37,421 nt of DNA from Syntrophales bacterium (GTDB lineage: Bacteria > Desulfobacterota > Syntrophia > Syntrophales > UBA8958), in the NCBI GenBank assembly GCA_023231165.1, contig JALNVY010000003.1, positions 1 through 37,421 on the forward strand. The letters run 5' to 3'. Below the pieces are notes generated by a model. That model was not told the origin of the DNA. It saw only the letters and a list, made by a program, of their open reading frames with translations, and did no database searches. This document shows positions 211-37,046 of the stretch, piece after piece. The first letter of the stretch is position 1, and each line of letters starts with the position of its first letter. A program made the translations under genes and the position numbers.

Positions 211-978
211 CTATCCAAAATTCCTAATTAAAAGTTCATTAACCTGCTTCTTTCGGTTTGCTCCTCCGGCAGAATAGGATGTTTCTACCGCCTCGATTTT
301 GAAATCCTTGTATAGATCCCGGATCTCCTCAGCATCGTTTATTGACATGATAAACCGACCATTGATCTGGGTCAGAATGTCTCTAATCTTTGTGAAGTCG
401 GCACGTTTGAATATCTCGCGGCCATAATAATCCTCGTACCCGTAATATGGGGGATCGACATAGAAAAATGTGTCTGGCTTATCAAATCGTTGAATGATTG
501 CATCGTATGGCCGGTTCTCGATATATACTCTGGAAAGACGAAGGTGGACAGCTGAAAGCTCTTCCTCAATTCTCAACAGGTTCAGACGCGGCCGCTGGGT
601 AGTGACGATCGACCACGATGGATTTTCAATGCGCGCTGCATATCCCGATTTCAATAAATAGTAGAATCGAACGGCCTTTTGGATATCCGTCAATGTCTCC
701 GGGTTCTCAAGTTTAAAGCGCTCGAACTCATCCCTGGCCACGAGAATCCACTTCAGATACCGGATGAACTCCTCCAGATGAAGCTTTACGACTCGATACA
801 GAGTAACGAGGTCGGTATTAATATCGTTAATGATTTCTACTTCCGACTCTTCCTTTTTGAAAAATACCCAGGCAGCACCGGCAAATACTTCACAATAGCA
901 ATTATGCTTGGGTATCCTGGCAACGATTCTCTTGGCGAGCAGCGATTTGCCGCCCATGTACGCTAAAAAACTGTTCAT
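211..978 (-). CDS. D12-class N6-adenine DNA methyltransferase (Dam-like), mom position
   Basis: YMGGKS, EVFAGAAWV, NDIN and DPPY motifs; start re-called at 978 (MNSFLAY) behind a GAGGAGG SD. Confidence 0.92.
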   Translation of the reverse strand: MNSFLAYMGGKSLLAKRIVARIPKHNCYCEVFAGAAWVFFKKEESEVEIINDINTDLVTLYRVVKLHLEEFIRYLKWILVARDEFERFKLENPETLTDIQKAVRFYYLLKSGYAARIENPSWSIVTTQRPRLNLLRIEEELSAVHLRLSRVYIENRPYDAIIQRFDKPDTFFYVDPPYYGYEDYYGREIFKRADFTKIRDILTQINGRFIMSINDAEEIRDLYKDFKIEAVETSYSAGGANRKKQVNELLIRNFG

Positions 979-994
979 CGAGTTCCTCCTCAGA

Positions 995-1023
995 TTGCAA
1001 TGTGGGAGTAACCCTGCTATAAG
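995..1023 (+). promoter_or_regulatory. Sigma70-type promoter antisense to the late operon
   Basis: TTGCAA(995-1000)-17 bp-TATAAG(1018-1023) with extended -10 TG. Confidence 0.6.
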
Positions 1024-1039
1024 GCGCGCTGCTCGGTTC

Positions 1040-1118
1040 GCGGATGGTAGCGGGTTATCCCGTCTGGCGTTTGGTTCGCCTGGTCTGGGGAGGTGGTGCT
1101 CCCTGGAATGCCATCCGC
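1040..1118 (+). ncRNA. Candidate four-way-junction (cloverleaf) small RNA
   Basis: Closing stem GCGGAUGGUA/UGCCAUCCGC encloses three hairpins (GCGGG/CCCGU, GGCG/CGCC, UCUGGGGAG/CUCCCUGGA); G-U pairs favour the plus strand. Confidence 0.6.
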
Positions 1119-1121
1119 TCT

Positions 1122-1187
1122 TTATTGCCTGAGATATAGCCATGCGGCAATTAGAGCGGCTATTGTGAGTAGGATACCGTCAAACAT
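1122..1187 (-). CDS. 21-aa hydrophobic micro-protein MFDGILLTIAALIAAWLYLRQ
   Basis: Translated by hand; AAGGGTG SD-like sequence just after the upstream stop; single TM-like segment. Confidence 0.45.
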   Translation of the reverse strand: MFDGILLTIAALIAAWLYLRQ

Positions 1188-1195
1188 CGGCACCC

Positions 1196-1870
1196 TTAAT
1201 CAATCGCTGAGAAGTCCATGCTGATCTCATAGGTGACGGTCAGTTGCGCTCCATTGGGCACTGCCACCGTGGGGGAAAGGATGGAACGCTCCATGAGAAC
1301 AGTTCTGGCACCGTAGCTGGGGACATAAAATATGTTATTTATTCCCACCTCTTTGATGGTGATACTCCCTCCACTATTATTGTTAAATATTCTCGCCACA
1401 GTGGTTTTCCATGTCTGCGTTCCGGAGGTGTATGCCGATATTGCCGCTGCTTGTGCCACATGAGATAGTTGGCCGCTGCTTGTTCCATCCTCGATAGCTG
1501 CGGCAAGTGTGTACTGGTCAATATCGAAGGCCGTATCTGCCGTTCCGACGGATATGATCCCGATCTTTGCTTCGAACTGGCCGCTGGCATACTGTGCATG
1601 TACTCCGGCCGTGTTGTCTTTGAAGTTGGCATATCCAGCTCCAAATGTTGAATCTGCCAAAACCAGTGGTCCAACATTAAACCCGGCGTAAAACAGATTC
1701 CAGAAATTCCTCGTCCAGCTATGTCCTCTCTGGATATCATCGATAATCAGGATGCCATTCTTGTCATGTACTTTCAGACCGATCATGATTTCAGGTGGCG
1801 AGGGGACCTTGAGTTTCACGCATAAGGTTTTCAATTCTGCGTATTTTTTTTCTTCTGTTGGGTTTAACAT
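1196..1870 (-). CDS. Putative virion/tail-associated protein
   Basis: 224 aa, beta-rich, AAGGAG SD, last gene of the tail cluster. Confidence 0.6.
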   Translation of the reverse strand: MLNPTEEKKYAELKTLCVKLKVPSPPEIMIGLKVHDKNGILIIDDIQRGHSWTRNFWNLFYAGFNVGPLVLADSTFGAGYANFKDNTAGVHAQYASGQFEAKIGIISVGTADTAFDIDQYTLAAAIEDGTSSGQLSHVAQAAAISAYTSGTQTWKTTVARIFNNNSGGSITIKEVGINNIFYVPSYGARTVLMERSILSPTVAVPNGAQLTVTYEISMDFSAID

Positions 1871-1886
1871 TTCTTTTCTCCTTTAT

Positions 1887-4619
1887 TTATGCATCGGGAT
1901 ATGGATATTCCGCCGACTGCAATGATGCTGAGAAGTCGGAAGTATATCTTGCAATTCCTTTAGTGATACGGAGGTCGTCTATTATCCCGGCAAAACCAGA
2001 GCCCGCGCCGGAAGTATGCCCGATTCTTGTTGGGGTATCTTCTGCTAACAACGCCGCTGTCCCAATATCAGTCGTGCTACCAAGCACTCCATTAAGAAAG
2101 GCATAAACATTTGGTCCTGAGCGGCATATGGCAACATGTCCCCACGCCCACATGCCCAAATTACCGATAATGGCGCCATTAACTAAATCCCATGCAGTTG
2201 TTTCTGCCATGTACAATTTCAGATTCAGACCATCGTTGTAGGGTTCCACTATTGCGATAGGACTGGCTGCTGCAGTGGCACATTTGCCAAAAAGCCAACC
2301 TCCTGACGGCCAGGGTCCGACGTTATTTGCATACGCCCAAAATTCAACAGTAAAATCCCCGCTACCGAAATTCAAATCTGCATGGTTAGGCGTATAGATC
2401 CCGGAGTTACCATCAAAAAACCCGGCCGCATTACCAAATTTCTTTTCTGCTTGACGGGTAAGAGGTGTACCATACGGAGTCCATATCTTCTCGCTTTCAT
2501 CCGTAAAAACAGTACCGTCCGCTTCACCATTGAAATGGAGTAGCGATACGGTGTAATTCGTAACGTCGTCCGCCACTCCAAAGCATCGATGCACCCCGCT
2601 CTGCGATCCGGACGTGTCTATGAGTGCGCCTCCGGCGGTCAATGAAAGATTAAAATCATCGGTCGTCTTGTTGCGGACATAATACTTTCCGCCGGTTAGC
2701 CAATCACCGGGGGTCAATCCCGTGGGCAGCGCCCCCGTCGTCTTGAAAAAACACATATCGCCATTCGCCATCCCATGCCCGGCACAGGTGACCAGACCCG
2801 GCTCATCAATGGAGATCGTACATTCGCGGGAATTGTGGACGAGGGTTGAGACAGCCAGCGTCGGGACAGCGGGGACGGTCAGGGCGACGGGGGCGTGTTC
2901 TACCGGCGTCTCCTCGATTACGGACGCGGAGACGGATATCATGGGAACATCTGGAACGGTGAGTCGCAGAATCCCATCCCACGGCGTCGGAGCGACATGC
3001 GGGATCGCGGAGCGATAGAAGATTTGCAGCAGCCGGAAGGTGATTTTCCCGGACGCGAAGTCCGGCGCTACGGAGATCACCCGCCAGATATTATCAATCA
3101 GGGCGTTGCTTTCCTGATCGTAGAGGGCATCCGCGGAGTAGATAACTGCATCGCCGACGTCGAGGTGCATCCGCTTGAGCGTGATATCCTCAACCTCGAT
3201 CTCGTAGAGTGGCGAATTGAACTTGCCGACGATGGTGTCCTGGATCAATTGCACCGTCGTCAGATCCCGGCACCAATAGTGTTGATACGGGGTGCCTGGC
3301 TTCCGGATCCCGTAAATGCCTTGAGATATTCCGTCCGCATGGGCGGTGTCGTCGGTTTCGTGCCGGAACTCCTCCGCTGCATAATTATATCCATAATTCG
3401 CCGGGCATTGATTGATCACATTGACCAGGCGCAGGTTTGACTCGATCAGGGTCGTCTCCTGTTTAGGCAGAGTCGGCGGGGTGCCGGCGGAATATTGATC
3501 AATAGTGCCATCGTCGATCTCCAGGACCAACTGACCGGCGCCGTTGAGGTATGCCGAACCGAGGACCGAGGACATCATGGCGGTGATGATCTCCCAGAGC
3601 GTACCGTCCTGGCTGATCACGCCTCCGGCCACGTATCCCCATTTGTCGAATATCTGCGAGGCCTGCGCTTTTTTGCTCGCCTCAAATATAGCGGATGTAA
3701 AATCATTCTCCTCGGTTAGGAGATCATCAACCATATCGACGATGTTTGCGATCATTGTGCCACCGGCCAACGTGACCGGGAGGAATACTTTGCCCTTGCC
3801 CTTGGCCGTAATGACGTTTGTCCCCTGGTCCGCCGTGAATGTTACCGTGGCGATGTTCATGTTTTGCACATGGAGCGCAGGCGGGGGGACCGGCGGTTCA
3901 AAATCGTGTGATGGATTGAAAGTATAGTTCGCCGGATCCACCAGGATCCCGGCGGAATAGATGTTGATCGCGTTCCCGGTACCCAGTACCGGACTATCCG
4001 AAAAACAATAGACATGATTTACGATGTCGATGCAGGGGAGCGTCCAGACGCCCTCATCACCGTCTGAACAGTCCCCGTAAACAATCGGCAAAAGGTCAGC
4101 GGTGTTAAGCGGGTTCGCGTATTTCCCGGCCCGATGCAGATAATAAGTGTCGTCCAGAGTGACCCCGGACGGGCTGTTTGAGGATTTCTCATCCGCCTCG
4201 ATGCTCAAGACCGATAGGGCAGAGACTTCGGAAATCTTCCCCTGAAAAATGCTGATATGGTTCGCCACCGGCTCGTCTTCAAAGCCTATCCAGATGCTGA
4301 TTGGGCGCGACAGGAACGGCTCTTTCCCCAGAAGGATCGAAAAATACTTGTCCGCATTGTCCAACGCGACGGAGATATGCTGCTGCTGTTTGCGCGTGTA
4401 GGAGGCCAGGAGGTTGTCTTTTTTGGGGCCCAGGGTTCGTTCGAACGTCCCGAAATCCAGGACGCGGGGCAGACAACCCAAACTCCCGGCGATCGCCGCC
4501 ACGGTGATCGTCTTTTTCGCATACACCCGGTCGCCCAGGTGTGTCGCGATCTTCAGGTAGAGGATCGGGATCTCACCTCGGACAATGCGATTATGGGTTG
4601 CTATAGGGATGTGATACAT
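1887..4619 (-). CDS. Tail tip/receptor-binding protein with C-terminal LamG-like (concanavalin) domain
   Basis: 910 aa; C-terminal SLLHFNG...FGSGDFTVEFW...WGHVAICR...GIIDDLRITKG pattern; lies downstream of the tape measure gene. Confidence 0.75.
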   Translation of the reverse strand: MYHIPIATHNRIVRGEIPILYLKIATHLGDRVYAKKTITVAAIAGSLGCLPRVLDFGTFERTLGPKKDNLLASYTRKQQQHISVALDNADKYFSILLGKEPFLSRPISIWIGFEDEPVANHISIFQGKISEVSALSVLSIEADEKSSNSPSGVTLDDTYYLHRAGKYANPLNTADLLPIVYGDCSDGDEGVWTLPCIDIVNHVYCFSDSPVLGTGNAINIYSAGILVDPANYTFNPSHDFEPPVPPPALHVQNMNIATVTFTADQGTNVITAKGKGKVFLPVTLAGGTMIANIVDMVDDLLTEENDFTSAIFEASKKAQASQIFDKWGYVAGGVISQDGTLWEIITAMMSSVLGSAYLNGAGQLVLEIDDGTIDQYSAGTPPTLPKQETTLIESNLRLVNVINQCPANYGYNYAAEEFRHETDDTAHADGISQGIYGIRKPGTPYQHYWCRDLTTVQLIQDTIVGKFNSPLYEIEVEDITLKRMHLDVGDAVIYSADALYDQESNALIDNIWRVISVAPDFASGKITFRLLQIFYRSAIPHVAPTPWDGILRLTVPDVPMISVSASVIEETPVEHAPVALTVPAVPTLAVSTLVHNSRECTISIDEPGLVTCAGHGMANGDMCFFKTTGALPTGLTPGDWLTGGKYYVRNKTTDDFNLSLTAGGALIDTSGSQSGVHRCFGVADDVTNYTVSLLHFNGEADGTVFTDESEKIWTPYGTPLTRQAEKKFGNAAGFFDGNSGIYTPNHADLNFGSGDFTVEFWAYANNVGPWPSGGWLFGKCATAAASPIAIVEPYNDGLNLKLYMAETTAWDLVNGAIIGNLGMWAWGHVAICRSGPNVYAFLNGVLGSTTDIGTAALLAEDTPTRIGHTSGAGSGFAGIIDDLRITKGIARYTSDFSASLQSAEYPYPDA

Positions 4620-26928: not shown

Positions 26929-28176
26929 TCAGATCGCCATCACCACAGCTTCCGTTACTTTCTTCTCTCCCATTTCATAGGCCATGTTCATGGCCCTGGC
27001 CGCATAATTGTTCACGATAAGCGGGTAGGCGTGACTGATTATCTGGTTTCGGCGGTCCTTCGTGGTCAGGCGACGGCTCAGGGCATCGAAAGCGCTGTCT
27101 TCAAAAATATCGACTACCTTTGCGCCGATCCGCTTGAACTTCATGGTTAGGTATTCCTTGGTGTTTCCGTTCAAACCCTTGATCTCTGCCGTCTGGATCC
27201 TGCGGATAACCTCCCGCATCTCGATATGCGTCGTTTCGTTAAAGAGGTTTTTCAGTTCCACCTGGCCGACCAGGATGATCCCCAGAAGCTTCCGATAGCC
27301 GTCTTCAAGCTCGTAGAAACGCTTCAGGTACTTCAGAGTGTTCGTGTGAAGGTCATGGGCCTCCTCGATGATAAGGACGGCTCTGAAGCCCTGTTTCGCC
27401 CGCTCCAGGAGGAGTTTGTGTACCTGCCTGGTTTTGGCCTCCAGCTTCATGACCGGTTTCTGCTCCGACAGGTCCATGATGATGGCATCGCAGATGCTGG
27501 CCGCATTGACCCGCGTCTTGTCGATCATCTGTGGAAAGATGACTATGACATCTCCGTCCTTTTTGAGCTGCTCGACAACCTTACGGCGCATGACGCTTTT
27601 CCCCGATCCCACCTCTCCGATCACGGCCAGGAACCCTCCGTGACGTGCCGCATCGATCATCGCCGCCTCGATATAGCGGTGCTCCTCGCTCATGAAAATG
27701 TCCGAATCCTTCTGGATGTCGTCAATAAAAGGATTCCTAAAAATCTTAAAATACTTCATTGCTTCCTGGCTGATCATTTCCACCTCCTTGGGAATAAATC
27801 GTTCCGGATCTCCCGGCACCATTGCCGGATGCCGTCTTGTCGCCCACATTTTCTGATTGTCCGCCGCCGGGCTCACATGCCGCAAATCCTTACCCAGGGG
27901 CTGCCAAATATCTGAAATCTTCATCTGCCGGGATGTTAGCCACTGCATGGCCCTCCGGTCTGCCTGGATCATGGCCTCGACCTTTGCCGTAAAATCGGGC
28001 CGCTCTTTAGGTATGTATCCCCGGTTCAATGTCAGGTTGATCGAGGGCCGTGACAGCCCCGTCTCCTGGCCGATCTTGGCCTGACTGATCCCGCAGTCCA
28101 CACAAAGCTCCTTTAAAATGATTGGTTCAAACGCTAACTGATATGGCGTTACTGCAATTAGTTTCGGCCGTCCCAC
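26929..28176 (-). CDS. Transposition AAA ATPase (MuB-equivalent, ExeA-like) with N-terminal HTH
   Basis: GEVGSGKS, LIIEEAH and IILVGQ.EL; GTG start at 28176 behind AGGAGG. Confidence 0.88.
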   Translation of the reverse strand: MGRPKLIAVTPYQLAFEPIILKELCVDCGISQAKIGQETGLSRPSINLTLNRGYIPKERPDFTAKVEAMIQADRRAMQWLTSRQMKISDIWQPLGKDLRHVSPAADNQKMWATRRHPAMVPGDPERFIPKEVEMISQEAMKYFKIFRNPFIDDIQKDSDIFMSEEHRYIEAAMIDAARHGGFLAVIGEVGSGKSVMRRKVVEQLKKDGDVIVIFPQMIDKTRVNAASICDAIIMDLSEQKPVMKLEAKTRQVHKLLLERAKQGFRAVLIIEEAHDLHTNTLKYLKRFYELEDGYRKLLGIILVGQVELKNLFNETTHIEMREVIRRIQTAEIKGLNGNTKEYLTMKFKRIGAKVVDIFEDSAFDALSRRLTTKDRRNQIISHAYPLIVNNYAARAMNMAYEMGEKKVTEAVVMAI

Positions 28177-28343
28177 GCGCTTACCTCCTGCGTTTTTACT
28201 TCCAACACCCATCCACACCTTGAACATGTCCCGAAGAGATCAAGGTATGTGTCCCAACCAATATTAAAACAGGCAGGGCACATGCCCATCTTGCCCGCCA
28301 CACGCTCTACAAATTCTTCTACTGGTACAGTCGGTATTCCCAT
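28158..28343 (-). CDS. Small zinc-ribbon protein
   Basis: CPAC and CSRC; fills the gap between transposase and ATPase. Confidence 0.55.
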   Translation of the reverse strand: MGIPTVPVEEFVERVAGKMGMCPACFNIGWDTYLDLFGTCSRCGWVLEVKTQEVSAWDGRN

Positions 28344-28348
28344 TATTT

Positions 28349-30157
28349 CTATCCCGTCGCTTCCATGCCGCGGAACTCATCCGCTGGCCACGTACCTGCC
28401 TGTATCGACTGAATCACCTCCTCCGCCTCTTTGATCTCGATACCAGTTTCATACCGTTCCCGGAGTTCCCTGTTCAGCTCCGGCGTGATCACGCCGATCT
28501 CCGCTCTGAGCAGCTTGAGAAGCTCCACAAACGATATTCTCCTTGCCGCAATGCCCCGTGGCACCGCCGCCGCCGCATCCACCGTCAACGGTGCGTTCTC
28601 AGGCAGATCCGCATGCTTCACATCCAGGGGTGTCCCCTTCCGTTCGATAAACTCCAGATTCCCCACCTTGTCAGCCTGATGGCCCATGATCCGGAGGGGC
28701 GATTCAAACCCGACCGGCGGGGCCTCGGCCATGCGTTTGTCTCCCGTCCCTTTCCATTTGAGGCCCCAGGTCTCCGCCGTTTTCTCCATCTCCGTCTTGG
28801 CCTTTTGCGTTGCCGTGTGTTTGATGCCCTTGTACGTTCCGTAGGGGACGCCATTCGTAAGGCGACCGTATTCATCCTCCGGGATGGGCTTGCACAGCCA
28901 GACAAAGCCGTTGAAATGGACTTCGATGTTGGGGTATTCGTAGGGATGACGGACCACGTTGACTTTCTGGCCTGCTGCCTGGGGATCTTCGATTTGATAA
29001 AAGCGATTGTCCACTTGGATGATCCGTGAGCCGTCCGCCGTTCTGGGGATCGTCGGCTCTTTGATCAGGAGGCGGTATAGCGATTCGTCGGGGCACAGGC
29101 GCAATTGCTCCGCTGTGATATACGACCAGAGTACCGACCGGGGCGCTACGTCCCGCATCTTTGGGACGGCGTTGGCCCAGATGCACCAGTCGAGCGCCCA
29201 GCGGTTCAATTCATCCAGGTCGGCGGGTCGCTGGAACTTCAGACGTCCTTCAAACCGGTTGATATAGTGCATGAGTCCTTCAATGGCCCCCTTCGCCCTG
29301 GGGTTCCCCGGCATGTGCAGTTGCAGGTCGATCCGGAGCGCGTCAAAAAGGGCTTGGTTAGCCTTGGCCGTCATGATGGATCCCCGGTCGGCAATGAGCA
29401 TGAAAGGAACGCCGTGAAGGCGGTATTTGCCGAGTTTCGTCCCCGATTGACCGTTCCAGGTCCGCTTGATCAGTTCATCCTTGGGCCGCATGGCCGTAAA
29501 CAGAAACGCCGATCCGTCCGCCGCCCGCTCACCCGAGGCGTAGAAGTATTGGAAGAAAAACGCCCCGGAGCAGTGGTCCACCACCGCATACCGGAGCAGT
29601 TCTTTTTTGATAGTTTTGGCCGTTTTGACGAGCTTATTTTTGTAAAGGGTCATTTCTGTATCCCGTTCGCCCAGGCCCTTTTTCGTATCGAGGAAATACT
29701 GGAGGCAGTTCGTCACGTCGAATTGCCAGACATGGTTGGGATGGGCGGAAAGGAGACGCTGATGGGGGGAGGGTTTGAGCAGGTCCTTGGCGGATATCCG
29801 CTCCTGACGCAGGCGGGAGAGAAACCAGCTTGTCGAGACGCCTCCCGTTTCGATCCCCGAATCATCAAGGATCATCTTGGCATCGCAGGCGGGAAGGGGT
29901 ATCTCGTTTGATGTGCGCCGCGATGATAACATGAGCGCCGAGGCTTCCTTCAACATTTCCGCTGACGCCCTGGAAGTTCCCTTTGTTGCCCGTTCCTTCC
30001 GTCGCCCCTCTCCCACCATAGCCGCCCAGCGATTGACCGATGTGGGTTGTACGCCATAATGCTTGGCCAGATCCTTTACTTTTTGCGAGTATTCCCCGCC
30101 TTTCCGGCCCCGCAAACTCGTCTGTACATGATTCAGTATCACCTCTGAGACGGCCAT
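28349..30157 (-). CDS. DDE transposase (MuA-equivalent)
   Basis: HPNHVWQFD, LIADRGS and NPRAKGAIE catalytic motifs; N-terminal HTH. Confidence 0.92.
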   Translation of the reverse strand: MAVSEVILNHVQTSLRGRKGGEYSQKVKDLAKHYGVQPTSVNRWAAMVGEGRRKERATKGTSRASAEMLKEASALMLSSRRTSNEIPLPACDAKMILDDSGIETGGVSTSWFLSRLRQERISAKDLLKPSPHQRLLSAHPNHVWQFDVTNCLQYFLDTKKGLGERDTEMTLYKNKLVKTAKTIKKELLRYAVVDHCSGAFFFQYFYASGERAADGSAFLFTAMRPKDELIKRTWNGQSGTKLGKYRLHGVPFMLIADRGSIMTAKANQALFDALRIDLQLHMPGNPRAKGAIEGLMHYINRFEGRLKFQRPADLDELNRWALDWCIWANAVPKMRDVAPRSVLWSYITAEQLRLCPDESLYRLLIKEPTIPRTADGSRIIQVDNRFYQIEDPQAAGQKVNVVRHPYEYPNIEVHFNGFVWLCKPIPEDEYGRLTNGVPYGTYKGIKHTATQKAKTEMEKTAETWGLKWKGTGDKRMAEAPPVGFESPLRIMGHQADKVGNLEFIERKGTPLDVKHADLPENAPLTVDAAAAVPRGIAARRISFVELLKLLRAEIGVITPELNRELRERYETGIEIKEAEEVIQSIQAGTWPADEFRGMEATG

Positions 30158-32750: not shown

Positions 32751-33458
32751 ATGACCGCATCAAATGAAATCGGGAAAAGAATAAAGGACTTACGAAAAGA
32801 ATTAGGCATGACTCAGGAAAAATTCGGCAAAGAAATCTATCGAGACAAAAGTATTATTTCAAAAATTGAAAATGGTGAAGTTGAATTATCAACATCTATA
32901 CGACAAGCTATTTGCAGGACTTTTGATGTCCGGGAAGAGTGGATATTGAGGGGGGTTGGCGAAAAAACGAAAGCATCCCATAATGCGGCTCTGGAGGAAC
33001 TGACCGTTGAACTTGTAACTCGGAAAGTTCCTCATCCAGATCATGAATTCGTTTACATTCGTCAGGTCAACGGCAAAATCTCTGCCGGCGGCGGACTGAT
33101 GCCGGACAATTCGGCGGATATTAAGGCTGCATTCCGGAGAGATTGGATAAAAAAGAGGGGAGGAAACCCCGACAAGATGTCTTTGATTAAGGTTTCTGGC
33201 GACAGTATGGTGCCGACGCTTCTGTCCGGAGACCTCGTTCTGGTAGATCACGGCCGCAATAGCATCGCTTCCCAGGGCGGGATCTACGCCATATCCATAG
33301 ACAATGAGATCATGATCAAACGTGTCCAGCCGGTTTTCCCTGATGGAAAATTGCGTGTAATCAGCGACAATAAGCAGTATGATTCCTTCGAAATCGCAAA
33401 GGATAAGGTCCTGATCAACGGGAAAGTGATCTGGTTCGCCAGGGACATGGAGAGGTAA
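32751..33458 (+). CDS. CI/LexA-type repressor (XRE HTH plus S24 peptidase)
   Basis: N-terminal HTH, SAG cleavage site, GDSM and IKR catalytic motifs, GKVIW. Confidence 0.93.
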   Translation: MTASNEIGKRIKDLRKELGMTQEKFGKEIYRDKSIISKIENGEVELSTSIRQAICRTFDVREEWILRGVGEKTKASHNAALEELTVELVTRKVPHPDHEFVYIRQVNGKISAGGGLMPDNSADIKAAFRRDWIKKRGGNPDKMSLIKVSGDSMVPTLLSGDLVLVDHGRNSIASQGGIYAISIDNEIMIKRVQPVFPDGKLRVISDNKQYDSFEIAKDKVLINGKVIWFARDMER

Positions 33459-34182: not shown

Positions 34183-35289
34183 ATGGACTTTATTGACAAG
34201 ATCCGCGAACTATCTGCACGCATTCCAAAGCAACTCGATAACATACAAACCGAAGAGGCTACCAAACACGCCTTGGTCATGCCGTTTATATCAGCACTTG
34301 GATATAACGTATTTGACCCGACAGAAGTAACTCCGGAACTATGCGCCGATGTGGGCGTCAAGAAAGGAGAAAAGGTTGACTATGCAATATTGCGCGATGG
34401 AAAGCCTGTTCTTCTATTCGAATGCAAACACCACGCTGCCGACCTCAGCAAGGTACACGCTTCGCAATTGTATAGATATTTCAGCGTCACAGAAGCCCGA
34501 TTCAGCGTATTAACAAATGGCATCGTATATTGGTTCTATACCGACCTCGAAGCGCCAAACAAAATGGATGAAAAGCCTTTCTTTGAATTCAATCTGATCG
34601 AGATCAAAGAAAATGCCGTTGAAGAACTTAAGAAGTTCTCAAAATCTTCTTTCGACCTTGATTTTATTCTTACAACCGCCGCGGAACTGAAATATACGCG
34701 AGAAATAAAGCGACTGCTACTTGAACAAATGCACGAACCAACAGATGAATTTGTCCGCTTCTTCGCCTCCAAAGTTTATGGTGGAAGAATGACACAGGCT
34801 GTGCGAGATCAATTCATCCAACTTACAAAACAGGCCTTCAAACACTTATTAAACGACCAGATCAACGAGAGGTTGAAATCTGCGTTGGCCTCAGACACCG
34901 CTACAGGGGGGACGATGGCGGCAGAGACCCAACCGACAACCGCTTCTGTTTCCCCGGAAGCCTCTTCAGGAATTGAGACAAATGAAGAAGAATTGGAAGG
35001 TTACCATGTTGTGCGAGCCATTCTAAGAGAGGTCACGACCCCTAAGAGGGTGGTTATGCGCGATAAACAGAGTTACTGTGGCATTCTCCTGGACGACAAC
35101 AACAGGAAGCCCCTTTGCCGCTTACATTTTAATAGCGCCCAGAAATACCTAAGTTTGTTTGACACCGAGAAGGAAGATAAATTTCCAATTGAAGGGATTG
35201 ACGATCTATACAAATATGCGGAACGCCTTAAGGCCACAGTGACGAAGTATGACTCTAATAAAAATACTCCGAAACTAAGCGCTGAATAA
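34183..35289 (+). CDS. Stand-alone HsdR-N-like (PD-(D/E)xK) nuclease-domain protein
   Basis: TEEATK..LVMPF..ALGY, EKVDYAI, ECK, QLYRYF and LTNG; no helicase motifs. Confidence 0.85.
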   Translation: MDFIDKIRELSARIPKQLDNIQTEEATKHALVMPFISALGYNVFDPTEVTPELCADVGVKKGEKVDYAILRDGKPVLLFECKHHAADLSKVHASQLYRYFSVTEARFSVLTNGIVYWFYTDLEAPNKMDEKPFFEFNLIEIKENAVEELKKFSKSSFDLDFILTTAAELKYTREIKRLLLEQMHEPTDEFVRFFASKVYGGRMTQAVRDQFIQLTKQAFKHLLNDQINERLKSALASDTATGGTMAAETQPTTASVSPEASSGIETNEEELEGYHVVRAILREVTTPKRVVMRDKQSYCGILLDDNNRKPLCRLHFNSAQKYLSLFDTEKEDKFPIEGIDDLYKYAERLKATVTKYDSNKNTPKLSAE

Positions 35290-36509: not shown

Positions 36510-37046
36510 ATGGAGCCTCAGGATGTTTCGAGAAGATCACACGATCTTTTATTCGGAATTCGCAGATCTGTCCGATATCATAATCGACGCTGCCTTTTTT
36601 TCGATCGCTTGCACAGAATAACCGTATCGTTTTCCTTGGTTTTCGGCTCTGCAACTGTATCCGTTGCTCTTTCACAGGCTGGACGCCCCTGGGTATCCGT
36701 CTGCGCAGCCATGGTTGCCGTATTTGGGGCAATAGATCTTGTGTTTGATGCGCCGCAATTTGCACGCCTTCATAAAGATTTAGCGAGACGTTTCATTGCC
36801 CTGGAAAAGGAAATCGTTATCTTGCCGACACTCACAGAAGATGAGATCCGCCGTTTCACGGCCGACCGTCTCGAAATCGAAGCCGATGAGCCGCCAGTCC
36901 TTCGTATTCTCAATGTCGTTTGCCATAATGAGCTTATGCGGGCCATGGGATACCCGGATAATTCCTTGGCAAAGATTTCACCGTTAAAAAGATTTTTCTG
37001 CCACTTCTTTGACTTAAACGATGCGGCGATAAAGGGATCGGCATAA
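36510..37046 (+). CDS. Two-TM protein, SLATT-like
   Basis: RSVRYH..R, two TM helices, then ARLH.DL.RRF..LE and IEADEPP; AAGGAG SD. Confidence 0.65.
   Translation: MEPQDVSRRSHDLLFGIRRSVRYHNRRCLFFDRLHRITVSFSLVFGSATVSVALSQAGRPWVSVCAAMVAVFGAIDLVFDAPQFARLHKDLARRFIALEKEIVILPTLTEDEIRRFTADRLEIEADEPPVLRILNVVCHNELMRAMGYPDNSLAKISPLKRFFCHFFDLNDAAIKGSA

Follow-up and report, generated by a model that had tools for sequence, protein, structure and literature searches.

Phage DNA-modification genes protect phage DNA from restriction, and the multi-layer control of mom in bacteriophage Mu is the best-studied case. Com, a zinc-finger translational activator, opens the mom stem-loop. According to one report, mom expression is harmful to the host and strictly controlled, and Mu-like prophages elsewhere carry a Dam-like gene that is preceded by com and occupies the place of mom in Mu (PMC3299994). 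The window examined here is the whole of a 37.4-kb contig (JALNVY010000003.1, 37,421 nt, forward strand) from the 2.65-Mb metagenome-assembled genome (MAG) of a Syntrophales bacterium (GenBank assembly GCA_023231165.1, 90% complete). It carries a Mu-like prophage whose final gene encodes a Dam-like DNA methyltransferase, and upstream of this gene lies a putative small RNA gene on the opposite strand.

Several small RNAs offer further points of comparison. DsrA and RprA pair with the inhibitory arm of the rpoS leader and free its ribosome site, DsrA-type RNAs being trans-encoded and Hfq-dependent. Lambda OOP and P22 sar are simple repressing hairpins, and P1 C4 and P4 CI are processed from longer transcripts. 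The Rfam D12-methyl motif is a candidate RNA upstream of D12 methyltransferase genes. In restriction-modification systems, an 88-nt antisense RNA of EcoRI, Rna0, has been reported with mutual promoter interference (PMC3141266), and an antisense promoter has been reported for Eco29kI (PMC3113576). An initial annotation of the window, made from the letters alone, had proposed that a promoter-driven plus-strand cloverleaf RNA, antisense to the methyltransferase leader and akin to C4 and CI, takes over the function of Com. The RNA is supported by covariation among homologues, by the excess of G.U over A.C combinations and by a conserved promoter, all of them features of sequence, whereas the likeness to C4 and CI found no support, as no Rfam family matches.

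Fold, covariation and strand of the RNA element

The putative RNA gene (~95 nt, 1030..1127, plus strand) was delimited from folds, RNAalifold, pair counts and a covariance model, R1, which matches the window at 1035-1127 with 95.8 bits. It occupies the 217-nt gap between a 224-aa open reading frame (ORF) and the methyltransferase gene, and is single-copy in its own genome. Four helices are predicted, namely P1 (1040-1049/1109-1118), P2 (1050-1054/1059-1063, loop UUAU), P3 (1064 and 1066-1069 paired with 1077-1080 and 1082, enclosing a variable 7-nt loop) and P4 (1084-1092/1099-1107, with a variable loop). This four-way junction is both the minimum-free-energy and the centroid fold of 1030-1130 on the plus strand (-45.8 kcal/mol, z -3.06, equalled by 1 of 200 shuffles), and fold and direct reading agree with the annotated junction at 1040-1118 followed by TCTTTATT (1119-1126). 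A mirror junction forms on the minus strand (-35.8 kcal/mol, z -4.88, 0 of 200 shuffles). The single-sequence fold is significant, yet strand-ambiguous, and because the junction folds on both strands, the strand is unassignable from one sequence.

The methyltransferase gene (211..978, minus strand) encodes a 255-aa N6-adenine DNA methyltransferase of the D12 class (Pfam PF02086, E 1.3e-32; PHROG 56, E 7.3e-83). Its start is the ATG at 978, which has GGAGG before it and from which the homologues align; the queries used in the searches spanned 211-981, one codon over. A 310-aa ORF (211-1143, minus strand) in the ORF list is an in-frame extension through the RNA gene that is unconserved in homologues, and was rejected. 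Gene callers may over-extend the methyltransferase in this way, and the present finding corrects the annotation.

The element was found in 7 of 101 related genomes in a DNA search, the source genome included. A search with the methyltransferase protein retrieved 34 IMG/VR loci and 22 genome loci, and the region upstream of the methyltransferase gene aligns well across homologues and is more conserved than a usual leader, promoter-like hexamers included. In a MAFFT alignment of 26 sequences that was not fitted to the structure (A3), 99.3% of cells pair and double changes occur in 11 of the 29 pairs. On four of five measures, no shuffle out of 500 matched the observed value (for pair types, 11 of 500 did), pairing fell to 43-52% when partners were slid by 1-3 columns, and 134 G.U combinations were counted against 1 A.C. 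With 39 distinct sequences, including Treponema-type members, double changes occur in 19 of the 29 pairs in a model-fitted alignment.

The imperfect pairs in the window had been read as G-U on the plus strand, as seen for example in U1048.G1110 and G1050.U1063, and the homologues confirmed this overwhelmingly. Across 87 distinct sequences, canonical pairs make up 2481 of 2514 cells on the plus strand (98.7%), compared with 2036 of 2514 when the same pairs are read on the opposite strand (81.0%), and 454 G.U combinations stand against 9 A.C. Some of the G.U pairs are near-fixed, with a tandem U.G/G.U of P1 present in 78 and 81 of the 87 sequences and a G.U at the base of P2 in 85, while one P1 pair changes along the path C-G, U.G, U-A. 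The P2 hairpin is nearly invariant across homologues. A covariance model built from A3 was run against 64 sources and gave 49 strong matches (39-104 bits), all antisense to the methyltransferase gene; matches on the sense strand reached at most 19 bits. The distant Treponema-type members include that of the cultured Treponema socranskii ATCC 35536 (L065), where the methyltransferase is only ~33% identical.

The covariation and the ratio of 454 G.U to 9 A.C show selection on an RNA read from the plus strand, and no other explanation accounts for the pairing together with this asymmetry. The counts are tempered by two considerations. Alignments A5 and A6, unlike A3, were fitted to the model and are biased in favour of the structure, which weighs against this reading, and the homologous sequences are related and hence not independent.

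If the sense strand alone mattered, as a cis-acting leader of the methyltransferase mRNA with no plus-strand RNA, the better z-score of the minus-strand junction (-4.88) would be accounted for, as would the complementarity between leader and ribosome site described below, which is a sense-strand property. This is considered very improbable, since the asymmetry of G.U and A.C and the drop in pairing from 98.7% to 81.0% on the sense strand run against it, full sense leaders are not predicted to fold as the junction, and the TTG-17-TGnTA promoter is conserved on the plus strand only.

Altered copies of the element were seen at three loci. At L094, on the same IMG/VR contig as L095, a recombination scar has left a copy truncated after P3, with a 39-residue methyltransferase remnant adjoining, ~2.8 kb from an intact copy. 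At L106 (2114-2201) the 3' half of the RNA is partly duplicated in tandem, and at L211 (1530-1600) a 5' fragment of the methyltransferase gene is fused directly upstream of the RNA in the same orientation.

Such scars could be taken as the mark of a DNA-level element, consisting of palindromic protein-binding sites or a recombination site and not acting as RNA. The nearly invariant P2 is a near-perfect dyad, and TAGCGGG (1048-1054, at the P1/P2 junction) recurs in inverted form in the promoter as CCCTGCTA (1012-1019), both of which would suit the same view. It is given almost no weight here, because G.U pairs are meaningless in duplex DNA, P1, P3 and P4 co-vary over 20-80 nt, CCCTGCTATA is unique in the window, and a Mor/C-family activator had no match in the genome. 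CCCTGCTATA was also tried as a repeated late-activator site and rejected, since allowing up to 2 mismatches gives 21 matches where 20.2 would be expected, and there is no Mor/C protein.

CRISPR arrays of 32-nt repeats (about 31-32 copies) on two metagenome contigs, L151 (490-554) and L174 (about 647-679), hold one spacer each that matches the P1/P2 part of the RNA gene. Host immunity has therefore been acquired against element-carrying phages.

The fold was compared with known RNA families. Rfam at gathering thresholds gave 0 matches in the whole window, and a search of both strands of 850-1300 with all 4227 Rfam 15 models, at E up to 10, found no match over the element; chance matches off the element were OxyS (14.6 bits, 1199-1295, minus strand) and mir-503 (13.4 bits, 865-914, minus strand). 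Hence the c4, D12-methyl and related motifs named in the initial annotation did not match, nor did the radC, tRNA-like and ribozyme models, and neither did the Rfam models of DsrA/RprA-type and phage-type antisense RNAs match the region. ARAGORN found 0 tRNA or tmRNA genes in the window, and the element departs from a tRNA in its P1 of 10-12 bp, the 4-nt loop of P2, the unconserved loop of P3 and a U-tract in place of CCA. In the literature searched no earlier description of the element was found, and the name D12-methyl occurs in no paper of that literature nor in the main text of PMC5737381, the Rfam scan being the only test against that motif. Taken together, the element appears to be a structured antisense RNA family outside all Rfam families, unusual for a hairpin that would mimic a ribosome site (see below), and spread over several phyla and enzyme families.

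A repeated GGTTCGC had also been annotated. Both copies are present (1035-1041 and 1073-1079), but no significance attaches to them, as one falls in the 5' leader and the other in the P3 loop, both of them variable, and neither is conserved in any homologue; by a rough estimate, the chance of a repeated 7-mer within 132 nt is about even. A small ORF (1044-1139) that starts at an ATG in P1 was rejected as a conserved ORF, given that loop lengths vary out of frame and that it lacks a Shine-Dalgarno (SD) sequence.

Promoter, 3' end and neighbouring genes

An extended -10 promoter of sigma-70 type is predicted for the antisense RNA at 995..1023 (plus strand) from sequence conservation. The annotated TTGCAA-17-TGnTATAAG can be read directly, with the -35 TTGCAA at 995-1000, a 17-nt spacer at 1001-1017 that includes the TG at 1015-1016, and the -10 TATAAG at 1018-1023, and transcription is predicted to start near 1029-1031. 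In a survey of 88 distinct homologous 90-nt upstream regions, TGn precedes a TA-initial hexamer in 82 and the spacer is 17 nt in 72; TTGATT is the commonest -35 (43/88), and most of the others have another TTG-initial hexamer. Best promoter scores averaged 9.15, whereas shuffles gave 7.28 and the opposite strand 7.13, and in the most divergent loci the promoter is closer to consensus (TTGACC-17/18-TGCTACAAT). The promoter lies 8-17 nt from P1 in most loci and 28-61 nt from it in a subgroup while its form is constant, which would be the behaviour of a promoter and not of a part of the fold. Judged by this conservation, the antisense RNA has its own promoter opposite the methyltransferase gene.

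Directly after the 3' strand of P1 lies a U-rich tail, TCTTTATTG (1119..1127, plus strand), which is the presumed termination site. The nine tail columns are 58% T (457/783) among the 87 distinct homologues, and termination at the tail is plausible. The helix that precedes the tail, P1 (10-12 bp, G+C-rich), closes a multi-branch junction, and some members are without the U run.

Several observations weigh against a transcript with these boundaries, whose existence, start and end we infer from the letters. The generic promoter scan, which demands T at the last -10 position, misses 995-1023, where the window has G, and the usual final T is likewise absent from the -10 in most homologues. A terminator scan of 700-1500 returned 0 terminator-like sites. 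Moreover, the Treponema-type members (L039-L041, L064 and L065) have a perfect TTGACA and no properly spaced -10, and keep the fold without an evident sigma-70 promoter or the mimicry of the ribosome site. Sequencing runs that contain window positions 600-1900 are of DNA only (groundwater, landfill and lake samples), with no RNA run among them. In the same five Treponema-type loci (about 1436-1500, minus strand), a GATC site immediately precedes the RNA, whose 5' edge carries a CCTGTACAGG palindrome. The promoter and control of this type may differ, and are perhaps methylation-sensitive.

To find further loci, a 22-nt P1/P2 pattern that is blind to the neighbouring gene was used. It identified 79 loci in IMG/VR, and a D12 methyltransferase gene is divergent from the pattern in 72 of these, its start being 56-107 nt away. 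The other 7 comprise three cut by contig ends and four exceptions. The neighbour is an N6_N4 methylase (PF01555) in L136 and a protein with DAM-like-phage1 and phage-GNAT domains (PF22555, PF22559) in L141, a type also seen in L210; L108 has an unknown 288-aa gene and then a BsuBI/PstI nuclease domain, and L075 small unknown ORFs. A scan of metagenomes gave at least 119 matches, 80 of them with DNA and 73 distinct. Among the 73 distinct metagenome loci listed, 56 have a divergent D12 gene, one (L210) is of the L141 type, in two the upstream DNA is too short, and in 14 none of the four neighbour genes looked for is present. These 14 consist of four with the full RNA (L170, L171, L176 and L211), the two CRISPR arrays, and eight with the 22-nt pattern only (L163, L168, L178, L184, L203, L215, L220 and L225; L215 scored 20.6 bits), which were excluded from the linkage count.

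Linkage to the target gene and orientation relative to it are therefore conserved in both the IMG/VR and the metagenome loci. In L136, L141 and L108 the genes on the far side of the RNA share the direction of the modification gene, so that the RNA gene is an antisense insert in a co-directional array. Comparison of the loci shows the putative RNA gene as a portable partner of phage DNA-modification genes belonging to three unrelated families. The hosts of the element-carrying phages include Syntrophales, Nitrospirota, Victivallales and Treponema.

The annotated absence of com was upheld by a PF10122 search of the whole assembly, which found none above the cut-off of 22.9, the best score being 11.4 bits on another contig. 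Of the 56 loci retrieved through the methyltransferase, the RNA is present in 41 and absent from 13, and 2 are without upstream DNA. In L057 (Polaromonas MAG) and L058 (Aquabacterium MAG), the methyltransferases are 59-60% identical, com lies immediately upstream (PF10122, 35.7 and 56.3 bits) and there is no RNA. At the RNA-bearing loci, tblastn for com gave no match except one stray at E 0.26. Orthologous methyltransferases have either com or the RNA, and no locus examined has both. Among annotated phages, the nearest methyltransferases, those of phiHAP-1 and phiE125 (47-49% identity), have no RNA (best 15.6 bits with filters off), and blastn of 900-1250 against the phage collection found no match.

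Other arrangements were seen at loci without the RNA. L036, L037 and L055 (Methylocaldum MAG) have methyltransferase orthologues 66-67% identical and neither RNA nor com; their leader (1300-1500) is a different, G+C-rich stretch of 200 nt that has several hairpins and may be a control element of a third type. At L021 (454-1476) an orthologue with 71% identity is preceded by a 340-aa ORF that, by eye, looks like a reverse transcriptase. L050 and L059 (Nitrospirota, about 1395-1480) have a short remnant, GAGCGGACAGGTAATAAC, that resembles the sense complement of the P1 3' strand; a hairpin with a T run comes next, immediately ahead of the methyltransferase gene. This suggests loss of the element.

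The sense leader and the proposed mode of control

The methyltransferase leader presumably arises by read-through of the tail operon, whose last gene is the 224-aa ORF at 1196-1870; promoter and terminator scans of the minus strand at 700-1500 called none. The translation initiation region, UCUGAGGAGG (984..993, minus strand; AUG 978-976), forms the 3' arm of a predicted long-range inhibitory helix. Full sense leaders are predicted to fold not as the junction, but into two nested long-range helices. In the outer helix, the ribosome-binding region pairs with the complement of the 5' strand and loop of P4; for the window, the minimum-free-energy fold sets CCUCCCCAGA opposite UCUGAGGAGG with 9 of 10 pairs formed (complement of 1084-1093 with 984-993). 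In the inner helix, the complement of P2/P1 pairs with the stretch that supplies the spacer and -10 of the antisense promoter. In the sense RNA, CCCTGCTA and TAGCGGG pair as the inner helix of this predicted lock, and covariation is uninformative for that pairing because both sides are nearly invariant.

Sequestration of the ribosome-binding site in structure is thus found by prediction, and it is specific to the locus. In 68 distinct leaders, the main partner of the SD is the P4 complement in 43, a local segment in 8, a site elsewhere in 8 and none in 9, and the inner helix is present in 59. When the leader of one locus was joined to the ribosome site of another, the P4 complement was the main partner in 69 of 204 chimeras. 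Pairing between the leader and its cognate initiation region had a mean of -21.45 kcal/mol, as against -18.05 kcal/mol for non-cognate combinations, and 0 of 5000 permutations were as low.

The P4 5' strand and loop (1084..1098, plus strand) are correspondingly a copy of the cognate ribosome-binding region, and their complement is the distal inhibitory arm. In the window, TCTGGGGAGG of P4 may be compared with TCTGAGGAGG of the initiation region. The longest run identical between P4 and the cognate initiation region averages 6.69 nt, compared with 5.43 nt for non-cognate regions (0/5000 permutations). Long runs, of 15 nt in L091, 12 nt in L132, 11 nt in L121 and L074, and 10 nt in L004, L137 and L140, reach the variable spacer between SD and AUG. 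The mimicry was not seen in the Treponema type.

A second, local anti-SD segment, GGGUUACUCCC (1004..1014, minus strand), falls within the antisense promoter's spacer, and its predicted partner is the SD of the methyltransferase gene. In minimum-free-energy folds of the short sense segment, the SD is predicted as the paired 3' arm in 54 of 71 homologues, and the hairpin arms vary together (GGUUACUCCC/GGGAGGACC, GUGAUCC/GGAUCGC and UCCCGA/UCGGGA). This local hairpin explains the conservation of GGG...CCC in the promoter spacer. RNAalifold recovered only a 3-bp helix in the sense ribosome-site region because spacing varies, and per-sequence folds were used in its place.

When the antisense target was masked, the predicted probability that the SD is unpaired went from 0.18 to 0.26, increasing in 33 of 68 leaders and decreasing in 8 (Wilcoxon p 4.7e-5). 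The gain is small because the local anti-SD hairpin remains. An early idea of repression, in which the RNA sequesters the P2 complement and frees the local anti-SD segment, was rejected because masking raised SD accessibility instead.

The RNA is probably, if by no means securely, a cis-antisense regulator of the adjacent modification gene, of one sign or the other. Activation, which would be a Com-like role played by RNA, is held to be somewhat likelier than repression because masking the antisense target raises the predicted accessibility of the SD, an effect that is small and a thermodynamic prediction only. In the mechanism proposed, the outer and inner helices would lock the ribosome site of the sense leader and block translation. 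Both inhibitory arms would lie within the stretch covered by the antisense RNA, so that once RNA and leader had paired, with RNase III cleavage perhaps to follow, the ribosome site would lose its distal lock and only the weaker local hairpin would be left.

A fuller version of this proposal is offered tentatively, as possible rather than probable. The RNA would replace Com outright, pairing with the inhibitory arm that is complementary to its P4 copy, displacing the ribosome site from a lock of 100-nt range and so licensing translation of a potentially toxic enzyme, as a lock-and-key cassette set on three enzyme families by phages of at least four bacterial phyla, with the G.U pairs keeping the junction to the antisense strand. 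The fixed G.U pairs fit a junction that is stable on the antisense strand only and leaves the sense strand for the lock, but these pairs and the invariant P2 could equally mark a binding surface for another partner. The annotated idea that an RNA-based switch replaces Com accords with the com-or-RNA loci, the three modification families and the co-variation of the leader; its role and its sign are what we infer.

A number of points count against control by this route. The predicted gain in accessibility is slight, and thermodynamic predictions on leaders of this length are unreliable. A clear extended match of the P4 loop to the SD-AUG spacer is seen in about one-third of loci (20/65 with at least 4 of 6 positions identical), by an anchored statistic made noisy by occasional mis-registration of the GAG anchor. 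That the leader is co-transcribed with the tail operon is assumed. In addition, a cis-antisense RNA needs no four-way junction, and P2 together with the tandem G.U suggests an additional partner.

Within the reading as a regulator of either sign, the RNA could be a repressor of leaky methyltransferase expression, for example in the lysogen, working by transcriptional interference, by duplex formation and RNase III decay, or by both, in the manner of EcoRI Rna0, P22 sar or lambda OOP. The geometry is convergent, with the promoter placed across the methyltransferase ribosome site and facing the late operon and its -35 only 2-10 nt from the SD complement, and a constitutive-looking promoter would suit expression in a lysogen. 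Published reports add that mom-type expression is harmful and tightly repressed (PMC3299994), that the 88-nt EcoRI RNA acts with mutual promoter interference (PMC3141266) and that in Mu, RNA polymerase occupies the divergent momP2 without the activator (PMC4287176). Repression is nevertheless rated rather unlikely. It would be redundant, since the sense leader is already predicted to be locked without the RNA; masking the antisense target raises, and does not lower, the predicted SD accessibility; and pure interference leaves selection on the four-way junction unexplained.

The near-invariant P2 and the retained G.U pairs resemble a recognition surface and exceed what antisense pairing needs. 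These features would suit a structured RNA acting in trans, by binding protein, as a decoy or in anti-defence, for which control of the neighbour is not the main job and the leader helices are a separate matter of the sense strand. The Treponema type, which keeps the fold without mimicking the ribosome site, points the same way, as do four loci where the full RNA has no recognisable modification gene adjoining (L075/L170, L171, L176 and L211). On the other hand, the RNA gene keeps a constant place and direction with respect to the modification gene's start codon in three unrelated enzyme families and in different phyla, and the RNA, single-copy, is never found elsewhere in its own genome. Modelled in trans, the antisense RNA showed no cognate advantage against the ribosome site (-25.29 versus -25.00 kcal/mol; 404/2000 permutations), and no other targets were identified. 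A principal role in trans is accordingly judged improbable, and cis-antisense control of the adjacent gene is retained as the preferred reading.

Prophage context and comparison with known systems

By Pfam and PHROG matches, a Mu-like transposable siphophage fills almost the entire contig on the minus strand. It includes a MuA-like transposase (28349-30157), a MuB-like ATPase (26929-28227), a terminase, the Mu portal, the Mu protease, the Mu gpT capsid protein, a tape measure protein of 1274 aa and a tail protein of 910 aa with a lectin domain, and an S24/HTH repressor is encoded on the plus strand (32751-33458). The 224-aa ORF (1196-1870, minus strand) is the last gene of the tail region and the upstream neighbour of the methyltransferase gene, and has no Pfam or PHROG match. 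The nearest named relatives of the contig are MAGs of Syntrophaceae and other Deltaproteobacteria. Beyond the repressor lie genes for an HSDR_N-type endonuclease (34183-35289, plus strand; PHROG 4225, E 6e-123) and a PHROG 11791 protein (36510-37046, plus strand), which are either phage cargo or host flank.

The comparisons made here suggest that uncultured temperate phages, transposable ones and others, include a large group that uses a structured antisense RNA where a protein is used in Mu. The outcome is an RNA family with strong covariation and an unusually clean call of the strand from G.U pairs. The proposed mechanism is directly testable by reporter fusions, and a regulatory cassette this compact and portable could serve in the control of toxic genes.

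With the Rfam D12-methyl motif, the element shares by name an association with D12 methyltransferases, and differs in that no Rfam model matches over 850-1300. The anti-antisense logic proposed here is that of DsrA and RprA, and like OOP, sar, C4 and CI it would be a short phage RNA that controls a neighbouring gene. EcoRI Rna0 and the Eco29kI antisense promoter resemble it in the similar size of a cis-antisense transcript, in a reverse promoter within a modification cluster and in the tuning of potentially toxic enzymes. Those RNAs lie within coding sequence and work by promoter interference, and no conserved multi-helix structure is reported for them, whereas the RNA described here is intergenic, forms a covarying four-way junction and is common to several phyla and enzyme families.

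The com-mom system of Mu also has much in common with this locus. Both are found where a transposable phage has its right end and directly precede a DNA-modification gene, and in both the ribosome site is held in an inhibitory structure, here by prediction, with a small upstream-encoded factor placed to open it. A second promoter in the regulatory region also points away from the gene in each case, as in the momP1/momP2 pair. In contrast to Mu, this locus has no Com and no Mor/C-type activator, the candidate factor being an RNA of the opposite strand, and its predicted inhibitory helix is long-range (~100 nt), while that of Mu is a local stem-loop.

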